A stretch of 64,000 nt of DNA, from contig CM060731.1 of assembly GCA_030704615.1 (NCBI GenBank), forward strand, positions 29,078,001 to 29,142,000. The letters are read 5' to 3'. Positions 3,341 to 64,000 of the stretch are shown here, piece by piece; the stretch's first letter is position 1; every line of letters starts with the position of its first letter. Source of the stretch: Takakia lepidozioides. Its lineage: Eukaryota > Plantae > Bryophyta. A program made the position numbers and the translations under genes. Below the pieces are notes generated by a model. That model was not told the DNA's origin. It saw nothing but the letters and a program-made list of their open reading frames with translations, and searched no databases.

Positions 3341-3346
3341 GCATGA

Positions 3347-3669: not shown

Positions 3670-3745
3670 CACATGGAGTCATGCAGCGGGATTGAACCCT
3701 GAACCACCAGGGCGACACACTCTGCACTTACCAGCCGATGTGCTT
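3670..3745 (-). mobile_element. Second tRNA-derived (SINE-like) remnant
   Basis: Minus strand has box B GGTTCAATCCC with a degenerate box A (..CGGCTGGTAA). Confidence 0.4.
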
Positions 3746-3794
3746 CATTTAAAGCTTTTGCACTTTGATTTTTTTTAAAAAAAATTCATTTTAG

Positions 3795-12477: not shown

Positions 12478-12660
12478 ACACTGTGACGGGCTGTGCCAAA
12501 CTGTGTCGGGTTGTGACTGTGCCAAGCTGTGACTGGCTGTGTCGGACTATATCGAGCTGTGATTGGCTGTGTGAAATTGTGTCGTGTTGTGTCTGACTGT
12601 GCGAAGCTGTGTCGAGCTGTGATAGACTGTGTCGGGCTGTGACTGGCTGTGTAAGCCTGT
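12478..12660. repeat. Degenerate minisatellite of about 10 bp (ctgtgtcggg/ctgtgactgg) in the probable 5' region or LTR of the Gypsy element
   Basis: Repeated ctgtg units at about 10-bp spacing. Confidence 0.7.
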
Positions 12661-30800: not shown

Positions 30801-31203
30801 GGTATTGGCTGAATTGCAGGTTGATCTGGTACAGAATGCATCAGGGACAACGGACCACAGTAGTCCTCTTGCAGTCGAAGGACCAATTCAGTTCTCCTCT
30901 TTTCCCATTTTTGAAGGAGAGGAGTCGGAAGATGAATCAGCCACTGTAGATGATAATGTCATTCCTAATGAGAATGTCAAGATTATAGCTATTGGTGGCA
31001 GTCCAGTGCAAACAGAGATGGAGTGCAAAGAGCAAAGGGTAATACAGGGGTTTGGGTGGTCAAATGGAGGGGTCGCACGAGTGAGCACCTCAGCTGCCAA
31101 AGGAATTGGACTGGACGCCTTGTTAGAATTGCTTGACAGAAAGCTGTCTGGAGAATCCAATCCAGACTTTGTGGCACCCAGGGGGTCCAAAGGATTATTT
31201 TGA
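21884..31203 (+). CDS. HflX: HflX-family GTP-binding protein, organelle-targeted type. Exons approx. 21884-22754, 23088-23152, 23515-23577, 24009-24098, 24584-24699, 25092-25151, 25695-25845, 27361-27416, 27896-27946, 29678-29732, 30000-30056, 30410-30532, 30820-31203; start uncertain
   Basis: The spliced translation gives YFGPGT, QQRNLE-AAWDRPVLDRVGLIIEIF.AHAQTKEAKLQVELA, GAGETELQLQRRRI, G1 VVGYTNAGKSS, G2 LFATLD, G3 LSDTVGFISDLP, LVEAFQATLEEV, G4 WNKVD and G5 TSA..GIGL. Splice phases are consistent. Confidence 0.93.
25965..27180 (+). mobile_element. Intronic non-LTR retrotransposon 3'-end fragments (first piece 25965-26055 inverted)
   Basis: SKTANVAVWGEFGIPPL..RWW and a Cys/His finger remnant; near-duplicate of 28075-28990. 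Confidence 0.7.
28075..29410 (+). mobile_element. Intronic non-LTR retrotransposon 3' ends, two tandem copies
   Basis: Post-RT region TANVAVRGEFG, CPLCGQSEDSIHFLIHCP zinc finger, shared 3' end 'atggccacaaggctac..caac..ttatgagtaca'. Confidence 0.75.
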
Positions 31204-33477
31204 TCAGTTACTCACCACAGCAAAAAATAAAAAGTGACATATCCATTGTCATGATATGAATCAACCTATTTCTTGTCTCCTCCAGGACTACCTTTCCACT
31301 CAGGTTACAGTATGGCAACTCATGATCCGTCCGCAAACCAACTCTTAGACAAACTGTCAGATCCCAAAGATAGATTGTCTAAGAGCTTTGCATCCAAATT
31401 CCTCTGTTTTTTTTTCTCCTCAGACCTTGGTTCACTACTGATGGTGTTGGTAGCCTGTGTGATGGCTTCTCCTTGAGACCTACTACTTTCACTCATAGTA
31501 ATTGATTGAAACCCATAAAATTATACTACTATATGTAATCTTCTAAGATTTTATCCTCTTTCATCATGGTCATGTTTTCATCCATTTGTGAGGCCACCTT
31601 CTTCATCACTTGTAGTGCAGTGGTATCTTAGGTTAGAGGTGTTACTTGGTGAAGGGGTAAACTACTTTTTGGTATGTGGGAACTGAGGTTAATGAGATCA
31701 ATCTCCGCCACTGAATCTAGGTTCAAAAAATCTTAGAGTCCAGCCCATGAAGAAGAACTTTGGCAGTGGGGCCCATCAGTGCAGTGCACATGCTCTATAT
31801 CCTCTGTATCCACCAAGGTTTAGAGAGTGGATAGGAGGTCTACGGAGACTTCTGGGAGATCTCTAGGCTCCCTATACACTCCAGACGTATCTTCCAGGAA
31901 CCAGCAGAACATGAGACTAGACTAACTTGTTTTGTTGCAGTTGTCCAAGGCCTCACGGGCAAAGCTTGAGGGAAGGAAAACATCACCGAAAAATGGGTCC
32001 GGTCGCTCTCTTAGAGCATCACCAACCTTGAGCCTGAAAAACTCCCTGCAACACCAAAGATAGTGTCGTCGATTCAGTGCCTGCTGGGTTCTGTGGCGCG
32101 GCAGCCCGACTCGTGCACACCCTTGTCCCTGACTCGCCCACGCTATCCCCGCGCACCTCGCCTCCCATTGCCGGAAGGGGCGAGATATCTGCCAAGATGC
32201 TGACAGGCACACGCTTGGTCACGTTGACTTGGATTCAGGGATGTATTCTGTGCTCAGAATAGAGCGCATGGGTGGCGACCCCCACCATACCCTCCCGTTC
32301 CGTTGGCGTGCTGTTCAGTGTAGGGTGGGGATGCTCTCAGAAACTCACCCAAGCTCCGCACAAATCTTTTGCTTTGTATTCGGGCATGACTTTTCTAGAT
32401 CATGTCTAACCCACCACACTCTTAACTGCTAGGTTCCATGGGCACTCCCACTGGCCCCTACATGAATCCGCCAATGTTTTAAGAGGCCCTGCTGGTTTAG
32501 ATGGAATATTCTCTAAGGGGCGCCCCCAACAAATCGCACCTTGTTAAAGGCTGCGAAAAAGCCGACCCTTCACAAGGGGCAATCCATGTAGGGGGGGCGG
32601 GCTGCACCCTTACAATAAAGAGGGAATTTTTTTTTGACATTTTCATTCAAAACTTATATTGATTATTCGTTACTCAGAGGTTGGGTAGCGCATGACATGC
32701 TCAGGTATCGAATATTAAGGATATTCCCTAGATGTTTTAGAGTATTCTCCAGCGAAACTAAAAACTTTGCGAAACTTTTTTTAACTGCTCACATATGCCC
32801 TTGCAGCATCACCTATACACGATAAACATGTTAGCCTATAGGCGTGGGTTTCCTCATGTTATGTGAACCGGATACCCCAGAAAACCCCAAAAAAAACAAA
32901 AATCGTGGTTTTCAGTCTGGTCAGCAGCTTAAGCCCTAGAAAAGTTATTTTCGCACTGAGAAAATAAATATGAAGGTACTCATATGCACTGTGTCCGTTA
33001 ACATGTAATTCCTATGACCGCGGTTTGAAAACATTTAACCCCTATGACCGCGGGTTGTGCTCACGCTGTGCTCACTCGATACCAACCCCCCTTACTCACA
33101 TGGCAATTGGTGCCATGAATTTAACAGCAGTGTATGGAATGGTCTCCATGGAACCACCCTCATGGTTTTATGGACGGACGATCCTCTATTGGGGGAGTGC
33201 GCGGGAAAGTGGCCTCCTCATGTGTGTTTATTCTTTTTTTGTTGTGATTTGTACTCCAAGAGCATGGACATGTTGGGGTGTGAATAGCTTATGCAACTTC
33301 AGAGAGCACAATAGAATGTGCTACATATTCCCAAGATGTTCTTTGAAAATTTCATAGCAAAATGAAATTCTCCCGATGTTAGAGATTTTGCAGAACAGCA
33401 ACCAGCAGGGTGAGCATAATCACAAAGATGCAACAGTGTTCCCAATATTTGCTCAACTGAGCATAGAGGAACTGCGT

Positions 33478-33631
33478 ATACATATATATATGACGCCTCC
33501 CCAAGGAAGCATAAATTATGGTGTCTCGTGATCCCGAAGGGCTACTGCCAGCAAGAAGGTGGACACCTTTGTTACACCAATTGGTGGATTGAACGGAAGT
33601 GGTGGTATGAGCCCATTACCACTAGGTTACA
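33478..33631 (-). mobile_element. tRNA-derived SINE, family A, internally deleted copy
   Basis: Reverse complement aligns with 45655-45815 and has an (AT)n tail. Confidence 0.75.
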
Positions 33632-33693
33632 TCGTGGAACTACAAGATTAAGGAGCTTCCAGGGTGAGTTTTTCGCCTGCTACTCTCGCACTT

Positions 33694-37414: not shown

Positions 37415-40400
37415 ATGTCGCAGAACTTTTCTACCTCGTCACGGCAGGTTAGGGTCCCTAATGATACGACAATGAGGCATTCAGGGGTGAACGAGGGTGC
37501 CATGTTCGCTCATCACATGGCGGAGCGGCCAGCACCTTTGGTCCATGCTTCTCCTCCTGCTCGTCCTCCTCCCTCTGACTCTCCAGGTAAGGCGACCGCT
37601 GCGACTATGCCTACCAAAAGATCTGGCTGTGTTGGCGAATTGGGTGTCTTTCTCTCTCCTCGTTACTGCTTCCTGTCCACCCTTTCTTGTGCTTACACGT
37701 CTGCTAGTGCGTCCTTAGATGTATGTGAGAGCTGCCTTGAAGCTGAACTTGCTTTTCATGTGCAGATAATTTGGACTCCGAGCTTTGGCATGCATGTGCT
37801 GGTCCCCTCACGTCGCTGCCACCCGTGAACAGTATTGTCATGTACTGGCCGCAAGGGCATATTGAACAGGTGACGTTTGAACGCGTTACTAGTTGTGGAC
37901 TTGGAGCGGTTCGTTCTGTGTCTGTCTCACCGCCAAATTGTTGGTGTTCACACTCCCATAGTTGTTCACCGTCGAGTTAGTCTGAGTAGTTTTGTCATAA
38001 ACGCGTTCGATTTCATTTGTGGCAGGTGTAGTTCTACTTTCGGCTTTTGTCAGTAACACTGATGCTTTCATTGCTGACAGGTTGCGGCATGTACGACTCA
38101 ATCAGTGGTGGATGAGCTTCCTAAATACAGTTTACCCCCGCACATTGTCTGTCGACTCGTCGAGAATACACTGAGTGTAAGTGAATACACCATATGTTCT
38201 GTTGTCTTTTTCCCATCAAATATATTTACAGGATTTTGTTCTCACAGCAATCTGGGTCAAGATGTATTCTTTGTATTAATCACATTTCATCGTTACTAAC
38301 GGAGTTTCGAACTGTCCGAGTGTTGCTTTGCAGGCGGATCCAGATAGCGATGAGGTTTTTGCCCAGATGACCCTGAATCCTGTGCCTGAGGTATATCTTC
38401 AACTGAGGATACTCCTCTCATCTGTGCTCTCTGGGATTTCATGACTGGTGATAGGTTTGCTTGGAAGTCGTTTGAGTTGCTATGTCCAGGATTTCACTCG
38501 GTGTCATGTTGTGGTGTTACAGGGAGATGTAGCTTCATGGTCGGAAGAGCCTCCAGCAGTTCCCAAGAGGAACTTGCACATGTTTTGTAAAACTCTGACT
38601 GCAAGTGATACCAGCACACATGGAGGGTTCTCTGTTCCAAGGCGCGCAGCGGAAGACTGTCTGCCCCAGCTTGTGAGCTATTCAACCCCCGATAGCATCT
38701 TGTTGATGTCATTTTAGTCACTGAAATTGTCGGTGCAAAGATGCATGGAAACTAGTTTTAGTATCATGGCATGTGACTATCCGAGTGTAACATGTGCCTG
38801 AAATGTGATCTTTCCTGCATGCTGTTGTTCAGGATTACACAATGAATCCACCATGTCAAGAGCTGGTGGCAAAGGACTTGCATGGAGTTGAGTGGAAATT
38901 CCGTCACATTTACCGAGGTATCAGACAATTTCTGTCACTGACACAACCTAGTTAAAACGTGTGTATACCTGTTATCTTCACTGCGTATGTGTGGCTGGTT
39001 CTGTACTGAAGTTGGAGCTGGTACGCCATGGAAAAACCCCAGGAAGAGACTTTCCTCAGCTCATATTCTGAGAGTAGTGGGGGATGTCTCTTGAGCTCCT
39101 ATCTGGACTGGGAAGACTGAACAGTGTGATGTGTGAAGTGTGTATTGGAGCACTCAGCCCAGAACATTTGCACACAGAAAGTTCTAACGCGAACATGGTA
39201 TGTGGATGTATGACCATGGTGCAGGCCATCCACGAAGGCATCTTCTTACCACAGGCTGGAGTGTGTTTGTGAGCACCAAAAAACTAGTAGCAGGGGACTC
39301 TGTCCTTTTTCTAAGGTACATGAGTCTCCATTGTCTTCTTTCAGAGTCCTTGTCGTTGATGGCCCGTAGTCCCTTGTGCGAAGTTGGGAATGTAACTTGT
39401 TGCGGGGATATATCACATTCTGAAGTTGTGTTTCAAGTCAAGGTGGGGGTTTAAGAGGCTCCGGTGGTTTGAGAAGTACTGATGAATGCTTCTGTTGACA
39501 GGGGGGAGAATGGACATCTGAGATTAGGGGTAAGGCGTGCAGCCAAACAGCAGCAGAATCGGTCATCTTACTTTTCCAGCCAAAGTATGCACCTCGGTGT
39601 GCTTGCTGCTGCTTCGCATGCTGCCAGAGAAAAACTTCGGTTCAGTGTCATCTACAATCCAAGGTGCGTCTTCTTTGCATTCTATCTGACCTGGCATCAT
39701 CCACTTGAAGACAATCTGTCACGCATGTTCTGGATTACCTGTGCAGAGTTGGGTGCACAGTTCATACTTCTTGTCAGTATTCTACGGCCAATGCTAGCAA
39801 ACGCTTTGACTTCTCTTGTGTAGTTGGTTTCTTTGTTCTCATGGAAAGTAGCTGAGCTTTGAAAGCAGGAGCAAGATCTTGCTACTGGAGAATCAATTCC
39901 TGAAGTGCGATAGCAGATTTGGCATCTGAGGGGCTTTGAACAGCTCATTTCAAGTGGGCCTTTTTGTTTGAACCACAGCAGTGTTCGTGTCAGAATTATG
40001 TATGTGCACCTGTGTGGTGTGTGTCTTTCAGGACAAGCCCTTCAGAGTTTGTCATCCCTTATCACAAGTGTGTGAAGGCCATCAACAACCCCCTCACAGT
40101 GGGAATGCGATTCAAAATGAGATTTGAGACAGAAGACTCATCAGAGAGAAGGTCCGGTAGATTCCACTCTCTTGATTCTTTAGGCAAACATATTTGAAGG
40201 CTGGAGCTTTTATTGGGTGACCCTCCCTGGTGTAACGCCACATCGTTCATGGAAGTTCTCCCTTGTTCTGATAAATGTTTCCTGGGTATAAAATATTATG
40301 AGGTGCCTTATAACCAAGCTATGATTACGAAGTATGGAAACTAGGGTATGAATGTAAGGCTTGTCGCTTAACATATCTTCGCAGACAATATTGCAGGTAT

Positions 40401-42721
40401 GCAGGGACTATCACCAGCGTCGGTGATGTTGATGCAGCCAGATGGCCGAAGTCATCATGGCGTTCACTTAAGGTACTTTGAGTGCTCTATAACTTATAGT
40501 CGTGGCATAGATAAACTCCCGGTTCTGTCTCAATTAAATTGTGTTTATTTTTGGTGTTTTCTGTTCATTATTAGAAGTTCAAGTTCTAAATATTTACTTA
40601 TGAGGGTGATATGGTAGGTTGGTTGGGATGAATCTGCGGCTAGTGAAAGGCACGAAAGGGTTTCACCTTGGGAGATCGAACCATTTATTGCTCCAACAAC
40701 CATGGCCCCTACTCCTTTGGGACCCCGACTAAAGCGCCGACCTTCTCTGCTGACAGAAGTTTCTCCCCTTGGTATGCATATTACTACTCTGTACACTGCT
40801 TTTTGTAGACATCCATCCTGCTGTTTGAGTTTCTTGGAAGTTACTATTTTGTGGCCCTCCCGCTCATTTGCCACCTACAATGCCATAAACTTGTGATAAA
40901 AAAGCCTTAACTCTGGTGGTACATTGGTGCAGGAGCAAGAAGTGCGCAGGACTTTCAATCAAATAAATTATCAAGAGTATTACAAGGCCATGTACCTCTG
41001 GACTTGGGTATGTGTGGAGGGGACGACGAGGAAGCGGCATCATCCAGGCCTCCAAGCTGGCTGGTTAAGAGTGAAGATGGTTATAAACGTGAAGGGGTGT
41101 CTCGAAGTAGGGGAGACGGTTGGACAACTTCGCACCGGCCTGAGAATGGTCATGTTTCAGAGATGCTCCTGAGACAGATTCATCAAGAACGGCAGGAGAA
41201 ACCCCAGCTTGATGACTTGGCCACCTCCCTTCAGCTTAGTCCTGTGCCACTGGCATCATACATGAGGCCCCATCCTCTGGGTGAGGCAGGTTTGAATCTT
41301 TCTTACAGTAGTCACATTGTAACAGAGCCATCAAGCAACAAATTGCAGTGGCAGTCGCTTACTGGATCCTCGCAACAGCCTTCCTTGCAGGATTCTTTAC
41401 CTAGTTGGTTCACATTAGCAAATGAATCAGCATCTTCATCTCGTCCAGTGGTTGGAATGCCTGAGCGGTCACTGCCCATCAATCAAACTCAGATGGAGAA
41501 AGGTTTGCTTGGTCTGCAAGGACACTCTTTGTCAGTAGGTGTCTGCCCCAAACAGCCAGAGCTGCAGCAGGTCTGCACACCCAGCCCGCAGGTGGAGCAA
41601 GACTGCAAGATATTTGGGTTCACCTTGACAAACAAGCGGACATGGCCGGTCTCCAGTCCCCAGACCACTCAAGGTGAGGATTCTGAAAGCTCAGGGCATT
41701 GCCCAGTGGCAGAAATAGCTAAGCCTTCTACCTATGGCAGCTTGGGGACAGGAGCATCACTTGTCATGGTTGAGCAAGAGATAATCACACCAAATATCTG
41801 GAGGCAGTACTGTTGGTGGCCAGGACAGGTTTTCAAATGGAGGAGCTCAAAGCTGGATACGGCCTGTACGAAGTTACACAAAAGTGAGGACAACAACAAT
41901 ATCTTGCTATTTAGTGTAATTTGGTGTTTTTCTTGATCTCCAAGCCTTCAATAGGTGTTGAGTGAAGGTCATTGACCTTGAGCACCTTGTTCTGATGGTA
42001 AGATGTCGAACCATCTGAATTATTTGTACTACTGTGGGATATTGTGTATGGAGTACTGTCATCTCAATGTGCCTCAGGTGTACAAGCAAGGCAAGCCGGG
42101 GCGCTCCATAGATCTATCCAGGTATGAAAACTATGACGAGCTAAGGCGTGGTCTTACAACGTTGTTCAACTTGGAAGGGCAGCTGGATGACCTCGAGAAG
42201 GGCTGGCAAGTGGTCTATACAGACCATGAAGATGATGTCCTCCTTGTGGGGGATGATCCGTGGGTGTAAGTACATTACCTGACCCCATTTGACCATCTAC
42301 CCATGCATATTTCTTGTAGCTATTGACCCACAGGGAATCGTACGTGAGATTGTGCTTGAAACCTCACCTTCTGCACCTGGGTCAGTGAGTTAGGAGGATT
42401 AATTGTGCCCTGCTGTCTCCTTCCCTGTGGTTTTGCGTATCTCTGTGTCTGTAGTTGAGGAATGTGGTAAGCAGGAGTTTGTTTAATCTTCCTTGTTACC
42501 TGGGTAGTAATTTCTGAAGCTATAGAAGGTGGGCTGTGTTCAACAGTGAATTTTGCAGTTGCGTCCGCAGCCTGAAGATACTGTCACCAGCAGAGGTGGC
42601 TGGACACGATGTGGGGAAAAGAGGATATGGAAGCTCTGATGATGGAAGGGATAGTTGTAGGCCCCTTGATGTCCAAGAGTCCACATCACCCTCAATGCCA
42701 ATGGACCATATATGTGATTGA
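37415..42721 (+). CDS. ARF: Auxin response factor, class B (repressor type). Exons approx. 37415-37586, 37766-37869, 38081-38176, 38334-38390, 38523-38672, 38833-38917, 39225-39315, 39502-39663, 40032-40151, 40397-40472, 40618-40771, 40933-41883 (or 41828), 42078-42265, 42547-42721
   Basis: [21 protein letters not shown]; B3 domain [41 protein letters not shown]; ARF domain [38 protein letters not shown]; CKIFGF repression motif; PB1 [30 protein letters not shown]. Confidence 0.95.
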
Positions 42722-43499
42722 CAAGCGTAGGCTGGATAGGTAGGTCTTTTGTGGTTTTTTTAAAACATTTTGACTATGCCTACAGTCTGCCAGCTTCCAC
42801 TGCTGAAGGGTGTCTGACTCCTGAGAGTGGGATGCATTTTCTGACTGGGCATTAGCCAGTGGAGAAGCCCCTTTTGTTCTGGGAGTTTGTTTAGCTTTGT
42901 TTGACAGCCTCCAGAGATCTCAAAAGGGCTAGTGTATAAACCTGTGAAAGTGGGTTGACGTGCAATTGCATGGCAACCTTGTGCCATTTGTAAGTCAAGC
43001 TTTGTGTTTCATCAATTTTGGGAAGGTTGACTGGAGGAAGCACACCTTTACTGGACATCCAGGTATTCTAGAGGTGACGCATTGTAGTACCTGAGTGTGG
43101 GTGAGGGAAACGGTATGTAACACATGCATTTCCTCACTTGGGTAAATAGTTGGATTCAAGGTGAGAGTCAGATGTTAATCATGGTACTACCCTCGGTTTT
43201 CAGTGACTAGTCATAACAATGAAGTGCATTGGGATAAAACTTGATAATCCCATTTTTGGAGGAGCTGTAAGCATCTTCCAGCCGCCAGACCTCGCCTGCT
43301 TTGATACTTTTTGGTGACATTTGTGAGTTCTGAGTTGTTGGTGTTGTTCCTCCTACCTTGGTTTTGCTTGCAATGTTGTCGAGGGCGGTTCAGTTCTCCG
43401 AAGCCATGTACACATTTGCCCCCAAGCTCAAACCTCAACCCTTTCCAAGGTGAAATTCTAGATTCAGATTGTCGAGTTGGAGAATGGAATTTCCAATGT

Positions 43500-45580
43500 T
43501 GGATGGGTCGGGCTGGGTATCGACTAGTGTGTTAAAAAACCGACCCGCTGGTATCTACTTTTGTAAGACTAGGGTTAAGGAACCTCTGGTATTGGCATGG
43601 TAGTGGTCAATAGCTAGTACCCTACCTAGGCTGGTATTGTCAAAAATCAATATCGAGGCAATACCCGCAGTATTCAAACTACAAACAAGGACTATGCAGC
43701 CGGTATTAGTATCAACCAGCGCGGCAGGTGCAGATCCAGCCTGCTCTTTATTGGCTCCTCCCTGAGGAGACCCTGCATGGATTGTTTTCTCCCGGTGTAC
43801 CTCCCATCTTTCCCAAATAAATAGCCATTTTTAACACACTCGAGATTCTCATTTGCTATTGTTACCCATTCATTCCTAACTTGGTTAATGCTTTAATTTC
43901 ATTATATTCAGTTCCCTTCAGATTTATCACCTCAATTCTATTATACTTAGTTCCGATTTTCAAATTCATCCCTTGAGCTCTATTATGTTCACTCTCTCAA
44001 TTTTATCACAATAACTTCCATTATATTCAGTTCCTTTCAAGTTTATCACTTTGAATTCCAATATATTTAGTTCTCTTCAGATTTATCCATCGAATTCCAT
44101 CACATTCAATTTCATCTTTCATATTTGTTCTTTGCATTTAATGTATTATTATTATTTTCTATCGAGGTATAAGCACAAAAGATTTGAATTCATATTTCAA
44201 ATTGATTTTTTAATTGTTATCCTCAGGGATTATTCTCACGGCTGATGGTTTCAATTTGTGTTTTAAGTATTTAAAAACCAATCAATAAAATCAGGACCGC
44301 CAGCGGTAGTTTTCCATTATAGTAATTAGGGTGGAGCCATTACGCGACTAGCCGTTTGTTATTTCACCCAAACATGTCATACCTTGAGAACCTTGTTTCC
44401 TTGATCAAGATTTTTTTTTTTTTAATCCATATATGATGGAGGTTGGGTAGCATGTGAGCATGTTTACGCGAGCAAACTATAATATTCTATAGATTCTCGA
44501 ATATCCTGTGAATATGCTACCGCTCACGCCACTCAAATTCAAAACTACTGAAAATTTTGTGCTCACGCGAAACTATCTTTTTCATTTTAGATTTGGTTTT
44601 TTATTTGATATTCTCTTTTGAAATTATTTTGCAAACGAAAGTGTTTGTGCTCGCGCGAGCACAGATTTTGAATTAGTTTCGCTGGCAAAATATTGCTATT
44701 TATAGTTTTATAATATTAAACCCAGTGGTTTGTTACTAAATATATATGCAGTGCAAAGGGCTTTTGCAACATGTTTATTTTCTTTTGGAAACCATGTATA
44801 TTTATAACTTGGCCTCATAACCAAAGCTGCCACTTAAATTAAATTAAATTGTTCATATGTTTATACCAGTGTTGGACTTGTATCACGAAAATATGATACC
44901 AGACTGGTCCTGGTATCACAAGGGCCCACATTTCCCAATACTGGTATGGTCCTGGTATTGGGGATAAGGGGGCGGGTAGGGTATAGGAGGGGTATCAATA
45001 ACATAAAATTGTGGATGTATATCAGTAGGGTATCAATATTTGTTTTTCCCATCTCATATGGGGGAAATATGAATATTTTGCCCGGGTATGTAGATGAAAT
45101 ATTTAGTATATTCAAGAAAATATTCAATGACCTGAGAAGAAGAATTGACCTTCACAATGGATCACAATTACAACACAATGCACATACAAAATACATTTCT
45201 CATACACATTGCACATTACAAAAATATACCATACCATATCTATTTTTGCACATTGCACATGAGTATAAAGCAGATGCCATAAAAGCAATAAATGCCCTTG
45301 AATTCCCTTGCTCTAACTCCACACATACACCTACGCGCCTTTGGAGGCTCACATAGCAGCAATACTGGTATCAATACCAATCTTGTCCGTCGCTATTCCA
45401 GACAGCTATGGTATATACCATAGTATAGAGCAAGATATATATTGCCCCTAGTATGGTATTGCCCGGGTATTGGCCACCCTACCTACCAGCCGGGTATGGT
45501 ATTACCTACCCAAGTTGATATCAGTATTGATACCCGGGTCGGACCTATATACCGGTCCAACATTGGTTTATACCTGGGTA
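43500..45580. repeat. Non-autonomous DNA-TE-like sequence rich in GGTAT/ATACC motifs (43500-43715 and 44860-45580) with AT-rich inserts
   Basis: Dense ggtat/atacc motifs in both orientations. No TIR or TSD defined. Confidence 0.35.
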
Positions 45581-45654
45581 TATAATACTTTTGATGTACC
45601 ATTTCATTTCTATATCTTTGGTATTACAGCATCTTGTTCTTTCTTCTGCAACGA

Positions 45655-45859
45655 CCAAGTTGTAGCCTAGTGGTAATGGGCACATACCACCTCGGAAGTG
45701 GTTGTGGGTTCAATCCACCGATTGGTGTCACAAAGATGTCCACCTTCCTAGTGGAAGGCAGTAATCCTTCGGGGTGAAGAGACACCATAATTTACACTTC
45801 CTTGGGGAGGCGTCAAATATATTCTTCTTCTTCTGTTTTTTTTTTTTTTTTTTTTTTTT
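45655..45859 (+). mobile_element. tRNA-derived SINE, family A
   Basis: Box A TAGCCTAGTGG (45663), box B GGTTCAATCC (45707), second copy at 33478-33631, followed by (TTC)n/poly-T. Confidence 0.78.
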
Positions 45860-46169
45860 CAAAAGAGAAACACTTGGGAGCGACAGCTCACAAATCAGGC
45901 CCCTTGATAGTGAGAGGAGAAAATAACCTCTTTCACAGTAACCTCACCGTGAAGGCTTTCCGATGCGACACCTGCACAAGGAAGGGGGAGAAGAGCGTAC
46001 CACACCCGTCAAAATAGCAGGATTTGACCCCAGAATCATTTGGGTGGCGCTCAGTGTACTTACCAACTGAGCTACTGACTGTTGGTTGCTTCTTCTTCTC
46101 AAGATCAAAACCCATGGACTATACTAGGGCATCGCGTTGCTCCACACTAGTAGTGACAAATTCTGAGAA

Positions 46170-46419
46170 CTACATTCAACCCGGTTGGCAGAGAGAGTGC
46201 AATATCCAATGGGAGAGCGGAAGTAGCCACCAATGCTTGCAATCTCCGTTGCTCAGCCATACACAAGCCAATGACCCATGTCAAGCAATTGAGATCCATT
46301 GCCTGACCCAACACCTGGCGTCGTAATGCCTCTGACAGAGCTGGCACAACTATAGTGCCCGTGGCAAATCCCATTGCCCGCTCTCGCTCATCCGCATTGG
46401 GCTCCACCAATTGTTGTAG
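46170..46419 (-). pseudogene. Second C5 DNA methyltransferase fragment (motifs IX-X)
   Basis: LQQLVEPNADERERAMGFATGT..LSEALRRQVLGQAMDLNCLTWVIGLCMAEQRRL, paralogous to 18675-18860. Confidence 0.88.
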
Positions 46420-47288
46420 GGGGGGTCTATTCCAGTCTTATGAAAAGATGGACTGCATTGTGCTCTGAAACATGATGCGGTTTTGGATTGTGAATGTTCA
46501 AGTTTTATTAAAAAGGTATATTACATTTTTTTCCCTTCAATAATCCCAATAAAGCTCTCAAGGGCTTCCTCTCCTTTTCCTGTTTTAAAAATAGTTGCAT
46601 AAAAAATTGCTTTTGTTTTGGATTCATCAAGCAATTTTGGATTATGAATGTTGTTTAGGAAACTTCTACTTGATTCAAGCATCCTCGAAAGGAAGTTGGC
46701 CTTTCAGGGAGAAGTGACCCCATAGGTTGCGCAAGAGTTGGTTTTTTCTGACAGCCAAAAAAATTCAAGGCGAAATCATTACTGACCATCATTCGCCATA
46801 GTGTTAGCATTGAATTTTTGTTGGGATAATTGGAGGGAAAATTAAAAATTAAAATGCTCATTCGAGCCATGAGTCATATACACTGAAACAGTGAAGGACA
46901 AATCCCCGCAATCGGGCAAAGCAAAGAGCATGACATCAATAGCAACACTACGAGTTCCAAACAAAGACCTTGTTGATCTTGCTCAAGGATCATTCATCTC
47001 GTAGTTGTGGGTTGATGGTGGGTAGGTATGTGCATCCCTGCGAAGACATGTACAGTGATGCAACAGACTGTATTCCGACCAATGCAAGAGATGCCACCAT
47101 CTGACAGTGTGGTGGGGAGATCTACGCACGTGCGCCCGAAAAAAGATTTAAGATGAGTGTGATTGACATAGCTCTCTAACTTAATCTCTATCCACCTTGG
47201 GGGACTGCCAGCTGACTATATCTTGATTGTTTGGACCCATGTGTTGAGTATAGGGCTACGGTCGCAGATCAAATGAGCCTGCTTGACT

Positions 47289-47315
47289 GAGAGAGAGAGA
47301 GAGAGAGAGAGAGAG
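47289..47315. repeat. (GA)n microsatellite
   Basis: Pure GA run. Confidence 0.95.
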
Positions 47316-47352
47316 CGTTGCCTTATCATTTCACATCATGCGATTTGTTCAA

Positions 47353-47665
47353 TCAAGCACCACAGGCTCGACCAAGGAACATGTACGCCCCCTTGCCAAC
47401 CTCAATACAAGATCGACCTGGCTCCTTTCTGACACCCCTGACCTTCATCATGTTTCTCACCTTTGCAGTATCATCCCACCTGCCACCTGCAGCATAGATG
47501 TTTGATAGCAATACATCGTGTTCATCCCACGTGAGGATAGATGTTGCCGCACGTTCAACAATCTCCACATTGCCATGGATTCTGCAGGCACCAAGCAAGG
47601 CCTTCCGCACCACAGCATCTGGATTGATTGGCATTTTATTAATCAGGTCCGCAGCAGGCAAGTGG
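47353..47665 (-). pseudogene. PPR E-domain fragment
   Basis: MPINPDAVV.KALLGACRIHGNVEI.ERAA..VLLSNIYAAGGRWDD.AKVR.MMK.RGVRKEPG.S.IEV. Confidence 0.9.
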
Positions 47666-47669
47666 GGAG

Positions 47670-47787
47670 ATGGATGAAAAGGCCCTCGAAACACACTTGG
47701 AGACCAAGCAGCAAGTGATGCTTGATTCTTTGTGGAAGCTCAATGTGGCTGACATTGAGAGTACTCTCTCCCATGTTTGCCAATCGG
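47670..47787 (+). pseudogene. DnaJ X-domain exon fragment
   Basis: MLDSLWKLNVADIESTLSHVCQ followed by a GTATGG donor-like site. Confidence 0.75.
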
Positions 47788-47859
47788 TATGGTGGGTGCA
47801 TGAGGACACACTTGATTTATGTCAAAAGTACAAAATTAAAGTACCTTGGCAACCTCCCG

Positions 47860-48910
47860 AAGCACGGAGTGGGTTGCTCGATTGAAGTCTGCTAAGGGCA
47901 CCAACGGGGGGCAGGCCCATTAAGAGTCGCAATTGGGAGCGAGAGACTTGCTTGTTCTCATTGAGAACGACAATCATATTCGAGTCTAAGTAACCGGCAT
48001 TGTTCATTGCTTCATATGCTTGCCCGGCTGTCATAGACCCATCCAATAACAGATATTACATTGTTATTCCTTCCTTCAAGATCTCGCACCACACCCATAC
48101 CTACAAGATATACCAGCCCCGAGTGAATCCATACATCCAACTCACAGGCTTCAAAGGCTTTTGGAACAACATGCACGGGCAGTAAACATGTGAGTACAGA
48201 ACAAAGTTCTAGGATGCAACCTTTGGATGAATCTTTTGATTCCCAAATCTTTAGGGCAAGTCAACAATTTTTCATTTACCTTGTAAAACTTGGTTAATTT
48301 AGACTTTACTCCTGACAATCATGTAGTGGGCTCCAGAATGAGAACCGAGATGTCTGCATGTGTCAGTTTCAACTGTATCCTTGGTGCGATGACACTGCTG
48401 CCTCAGCCCCATGAACAGTCACAACCCCCCCTTCTCTCTTTCTCTATTGGACATAATCCATACCACAAATTGAGATGCAATTGTTCTCACCTAAACCAGC
48501 AGATATGCTGGTTGAAATGTGACCAGCCCAAAGGGATCATATTCACTCTCAGAACGCTTTGTGAAGCCTGACAGACCATCAGTTTGTCGTAATGTGAGCT
48601 TCTTGACCGTCTCCCCGTCAGAATCTTGTGTGGATACGCCTACACCAATTTAAGTGCAACCACCATAAGTCCCAGATGCCAAACTGATTCATCCTGCGAT
48701 TATTCAAAAGACAAAAAGGCATTTGAGCATTTCCAATGCTTTAAGCCAAGTGAAGAAAAGGAGACATACCTCATGGCCAACATCCCACAAAATCTTGTGA
48801 CAGTGAGGTCCACCACCCAAGCTGGAACCTAGGTGACCACCTATCCTTGCGACTGTAAAGATTGTCTCAAATATCAACTCATCTGAAAGCTGCCTCAACT
48901 CCTGAAACGA
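47860..48910 (-). pseudogene. DXS: 1-deoxy-D-xylulose-5-phosphate synthase fragment (N-terminal exons with introns, frameshifted)
   Basis: [18 protein letters not shown]; ILWDVGH; [33 protein letters not shown]; [33 protein letters not shown]; PPVGALS. Confidence 0.9.
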
Positions 48911-49224
48911 AGGTACCACAATCCCACATTATATTTGCCCTGGCTCTAGAAGTGCCAAACAAGATGATTCTACTTCAGGCCCAAGCCAAAACGGAGTTCC
49001 TTGACAAATGATCACGCTTCTATAGCATGAAAACTGACAAGAAAATTGTTCTTCAGGCAACCAAGTGAAATCCGGCCCTCTTGGATGAATCTGGACCTTT
49101 ATCCCTGGTCCTTTAGCTAGCCCCGCCTATGTACAAATCATGAATTGTTACATGTTTCTGGATACTTTCATGTTGTCACATTGGCAATATCATGTCAAGT
49201 CACTCCAAACTATCAAGGGTTCAC

Positions 49225-50489
49225 TCAACCAGCTAACTTGCAGAATTCAATATGAAAATTTAGGGCCGACTATGATAAGAGGGAAAAACAGGATGAAATG
49301 TGTTGAAGAAGGTGTCTTGATTAGCAGTGCCTGATTTTATCAATTGTGTCGCTGTTGCTGCGGCTTCTAGTTGACCATCTACCCATGCAGGTTTCTTGTA
49401 CCTATCCTTCCACAGGGAATCATAGGTAATCTGGAGCTTGCGTGATTTTATCAATTGTGCCGTTGTTGCTGCAGCTTCCAGTTGACCATCTACCCATGCA
49501 AGTTTCCTATCCTTCCAGAGGGAATCACAAGTAATCTGGAGCTTGCAATCCGACCCTCATGGATGAATCTAGACCCACACTCTATTCCTGCTCCTTCAGC
49601 TATCCATGCCTTTGCACAAATCATGCATACATCCTTGCCTTGTTGCAAGCAGCTGACAATGACAGCCTAGAATTGTTCCAGCAAACACCCCAACCCTACT
49701 TATCACACTAGTTCCTATGCTGGCTTGCGTCTACTTCCAGCATGTATCAAAAGCCTCCATCCCACACCCATGTTGCGCATAGAGAGGACTGCCCTTGAGA
49801 AAAACGTGTACAGCGACCCCCCATAGTAGCCTTTCTGGTCATTGCCCTAAACCAAACACCCCAACCCTACTTATTACAGTAGTTCCAATTCTGAATTACA
49901 TCCGCTTCTCTCTATAGTCCAACAGGCATTCACCTTTTTGTCTCCATTGTCCCACCATTGATTGGGTCGGAAAAGTGTTCATTCCAAAGCTTCTCCTCAT
50001 CTCTGTTATCTGTATTTGGATACTTTCCTGCTGCCACATCGGTAGTAACTTGTCAAAGTCATTCCAAACCACCACAGATCCACCCAACGAGCTAACTTAC
50101 AGAATTCAATATGCATCTTAGGGCCGAGTCTGATGAGAGGGCAAAACAGGCTGAAATAGGTCCAAGAAGAAGGTGCTCTCACCACATTGTCCTTGACCTT
50201 GTGTCATGACGCAGGGAGGATTTGACCGACCATCAACCCAAAAGGACCTCTGTATGTGCTGCTTGTGTCTATAGTCAGGAAATGTCAGATTGGTCTGTGA
50301 GAACCACCACGGTGCAGCTGAGCAGGCACAAATTGAAACATGGCATGCTAAGACCAAGCTGACTCTCCCAAGAACCTTGTAAACATCGGGAAGAATACCA
50401 AATCATGGTACTAACAAGAGCCTAGAGCCCACATTTACAGGATGGACAATCTTCTTCACATCCTACATTAGAAAAATCCACACCTTGCG
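49225..50489. repeat. Patchwork of local duplications, PPR scraps and the block shared with 2669-3340
   Basis: 49333-49440 matches 49443-49546; 49230-49315 matches 50090-50176; 49682-49715 matches 49853-49886; PPR-like 'aaagcctccatcccac' at about 49750. Confidence 0.75.
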
Positions 50490-57027: not shown

Positions 57028-57735
57028 TGGGGGCCAAACTCAAAGACTCTCAATGAAGTAAAAAGAATTGTCAGGAACTTCATCTGGGGAGCAAGCTCAT
57101 CTGAGCAAAACATGAGACCCCAAGTCTCTTGGCACCAAATATGTCTCCCCAAAAAACAAGGGGGCCGCCCTAGGCTAGGACTTTTGGATCCTGAAACTCA
57201 AATCAAAGCCTTACTTGGTAAATGGCTTCAAAGATATGTTGGACCAGAAGGTGGCTGGTGTCAAGGACAAGAACATGACAGAACACAAACAAGAGATAAG
57301 ACTAGAGGTACAAAACTAGACAAGAAGTCAAGGTCGGCATGGCCGAATGCATGGTAGGTGAACATGAATCAAGATGATCTTTATAACAATGGACAAGAGT
57401 ACAAAATACTGGAACTCGACTCGGATATTGGAATGCTAGAAACTGGACTAGAATACCAGATACTGGAAACTGGACTGGATACTGGAAGCTGGACTGGAGC
57501 ACTGGACTTGGAACAAAAGTAGCTTGAACTTGTGTTGGCGAGACTAAGTGTCCAGTCTCGCCTCCTATATATACTGGCTATAAGAAGCTTCCCCAAGAAG
57601 CTTCCCTTATGGAGGTTTCTTGCTGGAGAAGTTTCCAAGATTAAACAAAAGTTTCTTGATGGAGAAGCTTCCTTAAACAAATGAGGTATCTTGATGGAGA
57701 AGTTTCCTCCAAAGGAAGCTTCCTGAGTAGTTTCC

Positions 57736-59330
57736 GTCCCGAACATCTTCAAGGAAAACCAGATGCTCTTTCTCGACGATCGTATATTGCGCCAAAAGAA
57801 GGGGATGCAACTTTTGACCAACAAAAATCCATGATCCTGAAACCAACAAATCTCCAATTGAATATGTTATCCATGTCCACCTATGACGATGCAGAGATCA
57901 TAAAGGAGATTCAGGAAGCACTGAACAGCGACCATTTTGCTACGACACTACGAAGTCAACTAAATCAACCTCGAGACAACCCACATGTTACAAACGACTT
58001 CGAATTCAAAGATGGCTTACTTTACTTCAAGGGACTTCTCTATGTACCTCCAGGACCTACACGACTTCAAATTCTTCAAACATGTTATGATCTTCCGGCT
58101 GCAGGACATTTCGGCTTCAACAAAACATTGGAATTGATATCCAGGGACTATTGGTGGCCGCAGATGTGGAAACTCGTGAAAGAATTTATAAAATCTTGTG
58201 ACACGTGTGCTAGAGCGAAGGGACCACGACATCGACCTTACGGCCTTCTTCAACCATTACCCATTCCCAAGGGTCCATGGTCGTCCGTGTCTATGGACTT
58301 TATTATGGACCTTCCAATTTCCAAGACCACCGATTCAATCCTTGTTATTGTAGATCATTTTACGAAGATGGCACATTTCATTCCATGTAATAAGACGGTT
58401 ACCGGCAAGGAAACTGCAAGACTCTTCCTCAATAATATCTACCGCATTCATGGACTCCCGAAGGATATCGTATCTGATCGAGGACCACAGTTCATATCAA
58501 ATTTCTGGAGGGGATTATTTCACATATTGGATACTAAGATCAACCTCTCTACAGCTAATCATCCACAGACTGATGGTCAAACTGAACGTGTAAACCAGAT
58601 TTTGGAGCAGTATCTTCGCTGTACGATGAATTATCACCAAAATAATTGGACGGACCTTCTGTCATTGGCTGAGTTTGACTACAACAACACTATACATTCT
58701 TTGACCAAGCAAACTCCATTTTTCTCTAATTATGGTCATCATCCTCGAGCAAACCCTTTCCACATGAAAACTGTTGGAAGCCCTGCTGCAGAAAACCTTG
58801 CTACTCATCTTGCTACGATTCACAAGGAGCTTACATCTCACCTCGCAGAAGCTCAAAAACAATACAATGAGTATGCAGATCAACGTCGTCAACTCCAACC
58901 CCAGTTCAAGGTCGGAGATCGTGTGTGGCTTCTTCGACGAGACATACAAACATCGCGACCATCAAAGAAGTTGGATTATCAACGCCTGGGACCATTCAAA
59001 ATTATTCGACAAATAAATCCGGTCAATTTTCGGCTTGAACTCCCACGAAGTATGCGCATCCATCCAGTCTTTCATGTTTCACTATTGGAGTTGTATCATC
59101 CATCGAATATTCCAGGGAGAGTTTCCGTACCACCTCCACCAATCGAAGTCAATCAGGAAATTGAGTATGAAGTCGATGAAGTCTTAGACTCTCGCATCAA
59201 AGTATAAACGTCTTGAGTATTTCGTACATTGGAAAAGCTACGACATCAGCAACCGAACGTATGAACCTTCATCCAACCTTGCCAATGCCTCTGACAAAGT
59301 CCATCAACGATATCCAGCTAAGCCCCGAGC
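57736..59330 (+). pseudogene. Chromovirus integrase with GPF motif and chromodomain (inside the inverted segment)
   Basis: GHFG, SMDFI, IVSDRGPQF, HPQTDGQTERVNQ, LGPFKI, HPVFHVSLL, EYEVDEVLDSR..YFVHWKSY..YEP. Confidence 0.95.
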
Positions 59331-59489
59331 TACACGTCAATGAGACGTCACAACGATGATGTCAGCCAAGCTAGTTTCAAGGAGAAGACTCTATATTCAA
59401 TGTACATGATACATGCTAAGGAAGGAAGAGCACCACATATCAGTATATATAGCTACACTTCCAGCACTCTTGCATCTTGTATTGGCAAC

Positions 59490-59891
59490 ATGGAGTCACA
59501 AGAACCAGATACATTGGAGTTGTCGCTTACCCAACTACCAGATCAGCCGTTCCGACTCTCACGACCTTCAATATCACGCCGACGCTCTCGAGACGATGGG
59601 CCACCAATGCGACGCGTACTTCCTCGTCTGGACTCCGTACGACGGCAAGTGGAGCCTACTCGAAGTCTGATAATTCTGTTGGAGATTGAGGCTTCGGACC
59701 CAGAGGGCAACGAAATCATGTTTGAAGGCAGCTTCGAAAATCAGAATGCTCAAATTACTGCGTGGTCCCAAGTTCAAGGTGTTGGACACTATCGATGGTT
59801 ACAGGGACCTATAAATCATTTGAGTCAAGAACAAAGAGCCGAATACTTGGCAAGTATCATTCGTCGGATTTTGGATTTTCTCCAACTCTAA
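59490..59891 (+). CDS. Additional 133-aa ORF of unknown function between the chromodomain and the PPT
   Basis: Uninterrupted ATG-TAA ORF in the element's sense orientation. A TATA-like 'tatatatag' lies at about 59444 and the PPT 'agaggagggg' at about 59933. Confidence 0.5.
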   Translation: MESQEPDTLELSLTQLPDQPFRLSRPSISRRRSRDDGPPMRRVLPRLDSVRRQVEPTRSLIILLEIEASDPEGNEIMFEGSFENQNAQITAWSQVQGVGHYRWLQGPINHLSQEQRAEYLASIIRRILDFLQL

Positions 59892-60127
59892 GCAAGTCCA
59901 AGATTTTACCGCTCCTCGAGGAACTCGGCGCTAGAGGAGGGGTGATGTCAAGGACATAGCCCAGAAGAACTTACCAGGAGTAAATACCAGAAGTTATCAA
60001 GTTACCATGTTACCGAAAGTTACCATGTTACCGAAAGTTACCATGACTTACCGTAATTTATCATGATCTACCATGATTTACCATTACTTACCAAGTTACC
60101 GGGAGCTACCAAATTACCAAGAATAAC

Positions 60128-62129
60128 AAAATCAAACCTTGCTAGTGACATACTCCATTTTGCCTGACGTCGATTCAAAACACGAGCACTCATAAAATAT
60201 TCGAGGTTTTTGTGATCGGTATAGACAGTGACATGATGTTTAGCTCCCTCCAATAGATGTCGCCACTCCTCAAAATCATCGATAATCGCTAGAAGTGCTT
60301 TGTCATGTATTTCATAATTGATCTCCGCAGCGGAAATTTTGCGAGAACGAAAACCAACAGGGTGGAGTCGGCCATCTGTACCGTATTGAGAGAGTATCGC
60401 GCCAAGTGCAAAGTCCGATGCATCTGCTTCTAAGGAGAGTGGTTTAGATGGGTCTACATGTACCAGTATGGGAGCCGTTGTAAATGTCTGCTTCAGTCTT
60501 TCAAATGCCTGGTTAGCCTTCTCGTCCCATACAAATTTGTCTTTCCCTGTAAGTCGTGTCAATGGTGCAACAATTTTGGAGTAGTCATCGATGAAGATTC
60601 TATAGAAATTTGCAAAACCCAGAAAACATTGTACATCTCGGACCGAAGTTGGTTTAATCCACTCGATGATGGTCTGTATTTTCTTCTGATCCATAAAGAC
60701 GCCTTTGTCGGAAATAATGTAGCCTAGAAATTCGACCTCAGATTGATGAAAAAGACATTTCTCCAACTTGACATATAGTCGTTTTTTTCTTAATTTATCA
60801 AGGACTAGGCGTACATGGCGGCCATGTTCTTCTTCATTATGTGAAAATATCAAAATGTCGTCCAAATAGATGACTACAAGGTTATCTAAAAATTCTCGAA
60901 AGATGTCATTCATCATATGTTGGAAAATTGCTGGAGCATTTGTAAGACCGAAAGGCATAACACTGTATTCAAAATGTCCATATCTTGTTCGAAAAGTTGT
61001 TTTCCATTCGTCTCCTTCTTTTATCCGTACAAGGTTATAAGCTCATCTCAAGTCGATTTTGGTGAAAATCTTCGCTCGTCCTAGCTGGTCGAGAAGCCCA
61101 GAAATCAGCGGCAACGGATAATGATTCTTGATTGTGACTTTGTTGAGACCGCGATAGTCGACACACAATGCGTAATGATCCGTCCTTCTTTTTCACAAAC
61201 AAGATAGGCGCCCCCGCGGGTGATTTTGAATGTCGGATGAAGTACTTTGACAAATTTTCATCAATGTATTCATGTAATGCAGCCAACTCCGTCTGGGATA
61301 AGTTATAGATTGGGCCGAATGGTGGTTGGGCTCCTTCTTGTAACTCAATTTCACAGTCATAAGGTCGATGTTCTAGCAATATGTCTGCATTTTTCTTCTC
61401 GAAGACATCTTTGAAATCTTGATATTGAGCGGGTAATGTTGAAGTACCTTTGTCTGTTGTGGTATTGATCGGAGTCGCATAAAGTGCAAATGTCGCCTCC
61501 TTTTTTGTAGCTCTCATGAAAGCTTTAGCTCCAAGGAATAGGGGTTGAATACCTTTGTTATTTCTACATTTTTGTCTTATAGAAATTTTTCGCGATCGCC
61601 AATCGATGTTGGGATTGTGAAGTACGAACCAGAGAAGTCCAAGGATCACAAGATTCGTTGGAGACTGGATGCCATTGAAAATAATATGTGATGCTTGATC
61701 TTTAAGTTTTACTTCAAGTGGTCGAGTTTCATGGTCCACATTTCCTGATGCTAATGGTCGTCCATCGATGACTTCAACGGGGGCCGATAGTTTCTTCTTT
61801 ACGAGCGTTAAATTGTTTTGCTTCGCAAAGTTTTTGTCCATAAAACAAGTTGAAGCTCCTGAGTCCAAAAGTGCTTCTACAGTGATATCTCGATTTTGCA
61901 CTCTGATTTTTATCGGAACTGTGAAGTAAGGTGCAGGGTCTGGAGATAGAAAGAGATTTTTTTTCGGTAAGGAATTTGTGGTGTCCAGCCGCATGGTCCC
62001 TACTGTGACTGGACATCTTCGTTTTCCGACCTCCTCGTATCGAACACTTGAGTTGTGCCCCGAACTTTGAATCTGCTCTTGTTGGGGCAGTTTAATGCTA
62101 TGTGATCTTCTTCTCCACAATAGAGGCAT
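60128..62129 (-). pseudogene. Chromovirus protease-RT-RNase H
   Basis: [65 protein letters not shown]; frameshift at about 61165. Confidence 0.95.
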
Positions 62130-63040
62130 AATGCATTCGAGCGCCGTCTTTGTTTTTCTTGTGGCGTCAATGGCTTGAATCGGACAACATCAATCGGCAT
62201 AGGATCACTATTGGATGTCTGATGGATCGTTGTGTTTGGTGTCGTAGTAGCAGTGACATGATGTGTCGTAGACCATCCATATCGCTTCTTTTGACGTCTT
62301 TCGAATAAACGATTATCGCATGCAATGACTTGGGTGATGAATTCACTCAGTGTGCTCACGTTTGGCATTGTCAGCAACAAATCTTTTACATCATCTTTTA
62401 GCCCACATCAAAACTGACTAATGAGGCTTTTCTCATTCCAGTCGAGGTCGAACGTAAGTTGTCGAAATTCGGCAGCATAAGCGGAAACATGACGTGCTCA
62501 TTGTCGAAGATTTCGCATCTTTGTTTCTGCAACTCTCTCTCTATCATTTTCTCCAAACGTTGCAGTGAACTCGGACATGAATGCTTCAAAATTGTATAGT
62601 AAATGCGAATTTTTTTCTAATAGCGGTGCAAACCAAGATAGGGCAGTGCCTGACAGAAAGGTGCCCACGAATCCCACTTGAATACCTTCATCGGGATAGC
62701 GTTGTGGATGTAGTCGTAGGAACAGTCGTACTTATTGAACAAAACTGCGAAATCTTGATCTCGTCCCATCAAATTTCTCGGGCATGCTAATCTTTGGTTC
62801 TCTCGTAATCTGTTGAAAAGGAACCGTTGCAGTAGTAGCTGTTGCAGTAGGGACTCGTATGGTTGAAGATCCATTGTTCGACTCTTTTAACTCTGAAATT
62901 TGTTGTTGCAAATTGTGGAGAGCGTTGCCAAGATCTTGAGACTGATCAGCTTGCAATTGGGCGGTAGATGTACGAAGTTCTTGCATCTGGAGCTGAAGAC
63001 TCTGCAATGTGGTGACCATTTCCACAAATGTACCTTCCAT
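62000..63040 (-). pseudogene. Chromovirus gag, frameshifted
   Basis: [40 protein letters not shown]. Confidence 0.9.
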
Positions 63041-64000
63041 CTTAACTAACTAAAGAACAAACTGCAGTCTCGCCATCTGTCAAGGACGTGAACATGACAG
63101 AACACAAACAAGAGATAAGACTAGAGGTACAAGACTAGACAAGAAGTCAAGATCGACGAGGCCGAATGCATGGTACGTGAACATGAATCAAGATGATCTT
63201 TATAACAATGGACAAGAGTACAAAATACTGGAACTCGACTCGGATATTGGAATGCTAGAAACTGGACTAGAATACCAGATACTGGAAGCTGGACTGGAGT
63301 ACTGGACTTGGAACAAGAGTAGCTTGAACTTGTGTTGGCGAGACTGAAGAGTGTCCAGTCTCGCCTCCTATATATACTGGCTATAAGAAGTTTCTCCAAG
63401 AAGCTTCCCCTATGGAGGTTTCTTGCTGGAGAAGTTTCCAAGATTAAACAAAAGTTTCTTGATGGAGAAGCTTCCTTAAACAAATGAGGTATCTTGATGG
63501 AGAAGTTTCATCCAAAAGAAGCTTCCTGAGTAGTTTCCCAAGTTACTCTTGGTAATTTGGTAAACTCCCGGTAACTTGGTAAGTAATGGTAAGTAATGGT
63601 AAATCATGGTAAGTTATGATAAGTCATGGTAACTTTTGGTAACATGGTAACTTGATAACTTCTGGTATTTACTCCTGGTAAGTTCCTCTGGGCTATGTCC
63701 GTGATAGCTGGTGGAAACTCATGGTTGGAGCTTCCATCTCGGAATCCTCCCCTATGCAAAACACTGCCTGGGCACCTTCTTCCCGTTGGATTTTGCAAGG
63801 CCTTAACCACAAAGCTCAGGGCTCCCCACTTTGGAACTCTATTTGGAAGGCTTGGAACTACTTTAGACCTTGCCTTAGGAAACAGAAGCCAGCTTCTTTT
63901 CACGAAGTATTGAGACAACACCTTTTCCTTAATTAACTCCAACAATCCCTCCCGGGAGGAAAAAATCCAAGCCAAAAGATGGGCAGGTTGGGATTCAAGA

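Follow-up and report, generated by a model that had tools for sequence, protein, structure and literature searches.

The window, by which we mean the whole stretch of 64,000 nucleotides of the moss Takakia lepidozioides that was analysed (contig CM060731.1, positions 29,078,001 to 29,142,000), carries two separate pieces of a DNMT3-like DNA methyltransferase (DNMT), referred to here as copy 1 and copy 2, among genes, gene fragments and repeats. Contigs from two DNA runs of one sample (X1 and X2) were aligned to the window at 80% likeness. Single-copy depth was 35 in X1 and 68 in X2, and the depths given below are sums over overlapping contigs, not copy numbers, which overlapping 31-letter contigs can inflate up to 31-fold. 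The following features were recognised:

5715-7517, minus strand: decayed Gypsy element with reverse transcriptase (RT), RNase H and integrase
17678-18985, plus strand: copy 1, a 1.3-kb internal piece with a whole DNMT3-like domain (self-BLAST, tblastn)
18986-20200, plus strand: non-DNMT lower-copy repeat, beginning TGTAGAAT where copy 1 breaks off at its 3' end (depth about 2,800-6,300 against 68)
about 37500-43286, plus strand: intact, multi-exon auxin response factor (ARF) gene; RNA-run contigs end at 43286-43287
45654-45822, plus strand, and 45881-46086, minus strand: two SINE-like repeats, tail to tail about a T-run; A and B boxes resembling those of tRNA genes recognised by eye
46165-46414, minus strand: copy 2, fragment of a DNMT3-like C5 methyltransferase, very probably of a retrotransposon, with motif IX, motif X, the last helix and the linker to SLPTG
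46415-46720, plus strand: non-DNMT repeat, starting TGTAGGGGGGG and adjoining the 5' break of copy 2 (sequence, depth)
47356-47739, minus strand: isolated PPR E-motif piece (Pfam PF20431) of very high contig depth
47844-48200, minus strand: broken exon with a GT donor after it, matching RNA-run contigs, in a region of 2-5 times single-copy depth
55576-56298, minus strand: LINE-type RT
57259-63704: Gypsy element with 480-bp direct repeats (57259-57735 and 63078-63538), its integrase and RT ORFs on opposite strands

Copy 2 lies among repeats about 3 kb downstream of the ARF gene, an exon of which gave 18 matches (best named, Physcomitrium ARFs, 75-78% identical), as fits a moss host; no homologs were found for the middle region of this gene. 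The broken exon at 47844-48200 reads like 1-deoxy-D-xylulose-5-phosphate synthase (DXS), to which we presume it corresponds. The first SINE-like repeat has a 79% copy at 33484-33637, and Rfam gave no match on 45500-46800. Positions 44860-45590 are occupied by a moderately deep repeat (about 1,700-5,100 against 68) in which ATACCAG/CTGGTAT words are frequent. At the other end of the window, positions 1-2666 form a tandem array, its units of about 370 bp containing inner repeats of 77-85 bp, and we take its translation to be degenerate PPR motifs. Exons on the plus strand at about 21800-31300 presumably encode an HflX-type GTPase, and inverted and direct repeat pieces lie in the introns of this series at 26-29.4 kb. 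The opposite orientation of its integrase and RT ORFs suggests that the Gypsy element at 57259-63704 is internally inverted.

The two methyltransferase pieces

A first, sequence-only reading of this DNA had placed a second, diverged methyltransferase copy at 46170..46419, 27 kb from the first and on the opposite strand. The peptides VEPNADERERAMGF, QVLGQAMDLNCL and MAEQRR are indeed all found in a single minus-strand frame from 46419 to 46240, and together again in a single plus-strand frame at 18677-18856, the two copies being separated by about 27.5 kb. Self-BLAST of the window paired them at 79% over 181 nt (E 3e-38), and in an ungapped 60-codon alignment 48/60 amino acids and 142/180 nucleotides were the same, so that peptides, self-BLAST and codon alignment all agree with that description; chance was rejected as an explanation of the likeness. 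The coordinates were nearly exact as well, since tblastn traced family homology from about 46165-46183, at the end of the linker, to 46419-46434, and no DNMT homology was detected beyond 46434 with the homologs as queries. The first two aligned codons of copy 2 are provided by the opening bases of the repeat at 46415-46720, which reaches a depth of about 2,100 against 68 in the bin 46520-46720. No third DNMT copy was present among the 98 repeat pairs listed by the self-BLAST, and tblastn of 120 homologs against the window gave DNMT matches at copies 1 and 2 only.

The word 'copy' stands as far as homology is concerned and falls as far as function is, since motifs I-VIII are absent and the open frame (46150-46437) runs into a stop at 46149 after the fragment. 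Copy 2 is a dead relic, a broken piece of 250 bp. A functional mini-gene was rejected for want of the catalytic motifs, and a recent duplication of copy 1 was rejected in view of a dS of about 1 and a different linker. Copy 1 retains motifs I to X in order, and copy 2 corresponds to the IX-X end; the DRM rearrangement is absent. Copy 1 is disrupted by stops and frameshifts, one of them at catalytic motif IV, and both its ends are cut. Against its relatives over 17670-18985, tblastn showed breaks by frameshifts only and no introns. Contigs of the family end loosely at 17678 and 18985 and are free of the frameshifts of copy 1; lower-copy repeats bound copy 1 at both of these positions, and the one at 18986-20200 is likely a later insertion. 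In the putative RNA run X5, one contig of 2,173 nt lay near copy 1 (10 differences in 228 nt), a match that carry-over of high-copy DNA could explain and that is not taken as evidence of expression; run X6 gave none.

Neither window piece matched a methyltransferase family, or any other, in Pfam, and identification of the enzyme therefore rests on homologs. With the copy 1 piece as query, 142 longer homologs were obtained; those with names among the best 120 belong to Marchantia, Calypogeia, Riccia and Sphagnum, plus one algal gene model, and Klebsormidium is not represented by any named sequence in this set. Domain scans of 15 homologs detected the C5 methylase family in 10 and retroelement domains in 7, several carrying RT, RNase H, integrase and PHD. 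DNMT3A/3B/3C were the best match in each of three comparisons, made with the nearly complete relative P0008, with the profile of its alignment and with the model predicted for it. In P0008 the stretch present in copy 2, to which we assign the motif numbers IX-X, aligns with the motif IX-X end of human DNMT3A, weakly by itself (3.4 bits) and at 8.3 bits with the profile. The predicted whole domain (mean pLDDT 64) gave DNMT3A/3B as best Foldseek match (E 4e-14), and the solved structures of DNMT3A/3B/3C ranked before DRM2, HhaI and DNMT2. The motif G[WF]PC occurs in 46/120 homolog proteins, many of the others being too short to reach it. In a DNMT tree based on 78 columns only and on 67/121 rows, with 54 near-duplicates left out, both window copies grouped with P0001 (support 94/84), P0001 being sister to copy 1, apart from the Marchantia rows (100/99) and the Sphagnum-type rows.

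The differences between copies 1 and 2 are distributed as 9/4/25 over codon positions 1/2/3. The Nei-Gojobori method gave a dS of 1.03, a dN of 0.106 and a dN/dS of 0.10 over the 60 codons (bootstrap 0.03-0.24), and none of 5000 neutral simulations reached so low a ratio. Without the first two codons, which overlap the repeat starting at 46415, the ratio was 0.12. These values, far from the ratio of about 1 that would have spoken against it, bear out the purifying selection that had been read from the amino-acid conservation, and both lie under 0.2, as does the Ka/Ks of KnitGypsy-Dnmt3. As both window pieces are dead, the signal belongs to the active lineages from which they descend. Over the same 58 codons, metagenomic loci of the family gave a median pN/pS of 0.52 (1,021 pairs) with a stop in 27/46, so that most of these copies are decaying.

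Summed contig depth was 122,144 (X2) and 40,739 (X1) for copy 2, and 427,811-999,585 (X2) and 125,253-256,137 (X1) for copy 1, or about 1,200-1,800 and 3,600-14,600 times single-copy depth, respectively (full span 1,161-14,635). When the 31-fold inflation is allowed for, floors of about 37-58 copies for copy 2 and 115-470 for copy 1 remain, with ceilings in the thousands. High copy number had been deduced from the presence of two pieces in 64 kb, which by itself is no proof; the floors of 37-470 exclude that just two copies exist. At positions 46269 and 46275, where copy 1 differs, more than 80% of the depth has the copy 2 letter, and a depth of 22,786 persists at 46216, in the linker that is absent from copy 1. 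Copy 2 therefore belongs to a multi-copy subfamily of its own, distinct from that of copy 1.

Gypsy relatives and the stop codon between DNMT and RT

Ty3/Gypsy relatives were found in liverworts, in Sphagnum and at 70 metagenomic loci, the latter coming from few related metagenomes and hence not independent. These relatives are collinear, without introns in the DNMT, and run from gag through protease, DNMT, RT, RNase H and integrase to PHD. Among the loci with sufficient room, RT was found within 2 kb downstream of the DNMT in 40/47 and protease upstream of it in 41/50. Another architecture, RT-RNaseH-DNMT-integrase-PHD in a single ORF, is present in P0097, P0106 and P0116, and the DNMT has thus occupied two positions in Gypsy elements. 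In complete relatives the 5' end is formed by repeat A (340 bp), while at the 3' end B (115 bp)-NN-A-B comes after a G-rich tract. This split A...B-A-B plan was present in L053, L047, L034 and L003, and L053, L047, L034 and L038 showed TG...CA ends and an internal GACA-NN-TGTC junction after the G-rich tract. A 4-bp target duplication was observed in 4/4 loci for which both outer ends were found, and these ends and duplications point to a DDE integrase.

Beside the window copies, tblastn, tblastx and motif searches of the window revealed no gag, protease, RT or family repeat, and the RTs of the Gypsy elements at 5.7-7.5 kb and 60-61 kb resemble those of the DNMT-carrying family at a level of only 28-40%. 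We infer the linkage of the window pieces to a transposable element (TE) in the host from the relatives; it is not seen in the window. With this proviso, depth and the Gypsy regions of the relatives support the earlier proposal of a TE-encoded enzyme rather than a single-copy host gene.

In these relatives DNMT and RT share a frame (12/13 loci) that is split by a stop about 98 codons after motif X. The in-frame stop was present in 47/49 main-family loci, as TAG in 39 and TAA in 8, and CAACCC followed it in 45. Five divergent loci have it too, and DNMT and RT do not share one ORF in the nearest relatives. The divergent contexts are TAG CAA CCA (L024), TAG CAA CTA (L065/L066) and TAG TAG CCA (L049); stop sites lie, for instance, at L072:3486-3500, L004:1470, L024:4509 and L065:10766. 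L072 is an apparently intact Gypsy-DNMT element, whole at 9,285 bp, with contig ends overlapping by 127 bp and with the G[WF]PC motif. It is 50% identical to the main family, and its ORFs are open over 1,162 and 1,047 codons with TAG CAA TCA between them, the first Met after the stop being 117 codons in. At L072:7044-7062 it has the same G-run and GACA-GC-TGTC junction as the main family. L072 sits in a cyanobacterial genome bin of the GTDB scan and is probably eukaryotic DNA in a bacterial bin; the second GTDB locus, L073, is weak, and scans of IMG/VR for the family gave one weak locus and one blank.

An amber stop with a CAR-YY context is thus kept across families that are only about 50% identical. 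UAG-CAR-YYA is described as the type I readthrough signal in the available part of PMC3542737. The CAACCC of the main family misses the last consensus letter and an ATG lies three codons past the stop, so that reinitiation is possible there; conserved Gln-Pro residues could also yield a similar pattern after the stop. The stop itself is contained in neither of the window pieces, but the host family likely has it too, because the proteins end 96 residues past motif X in P0001 and in Marchantia and 98 residues past it in Sphagnum and Calypogeia.

Proposed mechanism and alternative explanations

We consider it very probable that copy 2 is a dead 250-bp DNMT3-like fragment, likely of a high-copy Ty3/Gypsy element in the moss genome, of a subfamily distinct from that of copy 1. 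It would have been cut off by later insertions or deletions, or brought to the site as a piece. The fragment itself is inert and performs none of the steps proposed in the following for its active ancestors. Ribosomes would mostly halt at the UAG and release Gag-protease-DNMT, with occasional readthrough yielding RT-RNase H-integrase-PHD; that the methyltransferase is thereby packaged at the level of Gag appears probable to us. Being made with Gag, many DNMT copies would enter each particle. With somewhat less assurance, we favour a scheme in which the integrase acts at the internal CA-NN-TG junction of circularised cDNA: a circle of cDNA flanked by B-NN-A, opened at one such junction, would give exactly A...B-NN-A-B. 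The PHD finger might read histone tails at the target. The predicted function of the enzyme, CG methylation of new cDNA before integration, so that the new copy resembles host DNA, is put forward tentatively and stands slightly below an even chance.

A competitor of this last step, which we rate as possible and somewhat less probable than the cDNA disguise itself, is that the family DNMT is kept for a non-catalytic or host-serving role such as DNA or RNA binding, a silencing decoy or self-silencing. Gag-level amounts would suit a binding role, the KnitGypsy DNMT was inactive in yeast, and a benefit to the host is listed as an option in the available text of the 2018 study (PMC5890265). Against such a role, catalytic motifs are retained in the homologs and in L072, and the related SymbioDIRS-Dnmt3 domains methylate CG.

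As to the origin of the fragment, it is rather unlikely, in our estimate, that a TE-derived piece was captured by a Pack-type DNA transposon or a Helitron, or inserted as repair filler, along with the PPR and DXS-like pieces close by. Both of these lie within 2 kb on the same strand as copy 2; the PPR E-motif has a Pfam E of 8e-14, the broken exon departs from the RNA-run contigs that it matches by 11-19 differences and 18-20 gaps, and depth over 46721-48500, the PPR piece excepted, is about 2-5 times that of single-copy sequence. However, an ungapped, local search of 43300-49500 detected no terminal inverted repeats of a convincing kind on either side of the cluster, no typical Helitron end was seen by eye around the pieces, and copy 1 too stands isolated as an internal piece that other repeats have cut, erosion alone being able to produce such fragments. 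That copy 2 derives from the DNMT3 gene of the host itself, as an exon or a pseudogene, is highly improbable, for although the DNMT3-type fold and motifs would fit and true multi-exon DNMT3 genes exist in bryophytes according to the available text of PMC5890265, both copies have very high repeat depth, copy 1 aligns without introns to its relatives, unlike a multi-exon, low-copy host DNMT3, the window DNMT is 74-89% identical to TE-type proteins that run on into RT, and after the last helix the family linker appears instead of an intron, followed by the stop at 46149.

A fragment of a Gypsy element thus remains the preferred reading of copy 2. It is of little value alone, and shows that this land-plant host, where copy number is high, has a second subfamily of deep divergence. 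We regard as evenly balanced the wider view of an old Gypsy lineage of mosses and liverworts that combines a Gag-level DNMT, amber readthrough and CA-NN-TG integration and has at least two subfamilies in this host (dS about 1). If it is true, hundreds to thousands of copies would be enough for a transposon enzyme to shape the methylome of its host, and what transposon DNMTs are for could be tested in a model land plant by means of intact copies in Marchantia. The relatives offer a testable expression scheme, with DNMT made with Gag and Pol by readthrough, and the proposed integration would account for the odd split repeats. Cytosine methylation is the main route by which plants silence transposons, and it is therefore puzzling that a transposon should maintain, under selection, a cytosine methyltransferase of its own.

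Comparison with known systems

The host DNMT3 genes of land plants, on which Yaari et al. reportedly worked in 2019, have the same DNMT3-type catalytic domain with normal motif order. They are multi-exonic and few, whereas the DNMT family described here is intron-less, high-copy and tied to retroelement domains.

As far as we have searched, the literature describes a Gypsy-DNMT family only for Klebsormidium, and TE-borne DNMTs only for algae and dinoflagellates. No report of a land-plant family or of a readthrough site was found in it, nor of the TG...CA ends, 4-bp duplications, CA-NN-TG junction or conserved amber stop; subscription papers and bioRxiv supplements might mention bryophytes. Marchantia and Physcomitrella are not mentioned in the available text of PMC5890265, and PMC6317226 makes no mention of PHD, methyltransferase, Marchantia or Sphagnum. 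In their accessible parts, PMC12344493 and bioRxiv 10.64898/2026.05.21.726589 just cite the 2018 'streptophyte' case, a term that could include land plants, and those of 10.1101/363937 and PMC11982613 hold nothing further on the family.

The stops of L024, L065/L066 and L072 match the type I readthrough signal UAG-CAR-YYA of tobamoviruses perfectly (as given in the available part of PMC3542737). They differ from it in that the candidate site lies between the DNMT and RT of a retrotransposon, and in that the main family has CAACCC.

SymbioDIRS-Dnmt3 of Symbiodinium, for which CG methylation was demonstrated in yeast (PMC5890265, available text), is likewise a retrotransposon that has a DNMT3-like domain and split direct repeats. 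It is a tyrosine-recombinase element, in contrast to the relatives described here with their DDE integrase, PHD finger and 4-bp target duplications. In the same text, methylation of cDNA as disguise or protection was proposed by de Mendoza et al. (2018).

The closest system is KnitGypsy-Dnmt3 of Klebsormidium nitens, for which the Fig. 4 legend of PMC5890265 gives repeats in the order A-coding-B-A-B, and the DNMT of which showed no activity in yeast, a result called inconclusive by its authors in the available text. Both have an unrearranged, intron-less DNMT3-like domain, a Ka/Ks below 0.2 and multiple copies; the position in a Gypsy element and the A-coding-B-A-B plan are observed here in the relatives, the plan in L053, L047, L034 and L003. 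They differ in that the present host belongs to the land plants, both pieces in the window are dead and the copy number appears far higher, and in that the KnitGypsy DNMT lies in the Pol ORF (same source, available text), whereas the bryophyte-type DNMT ends the Gag-protease ORF. Since the in-frame stop leaves DNMT and RT joined only by readthrough, the family would be a variant of KnitGypsy-Dnmt3 and not identical to it.
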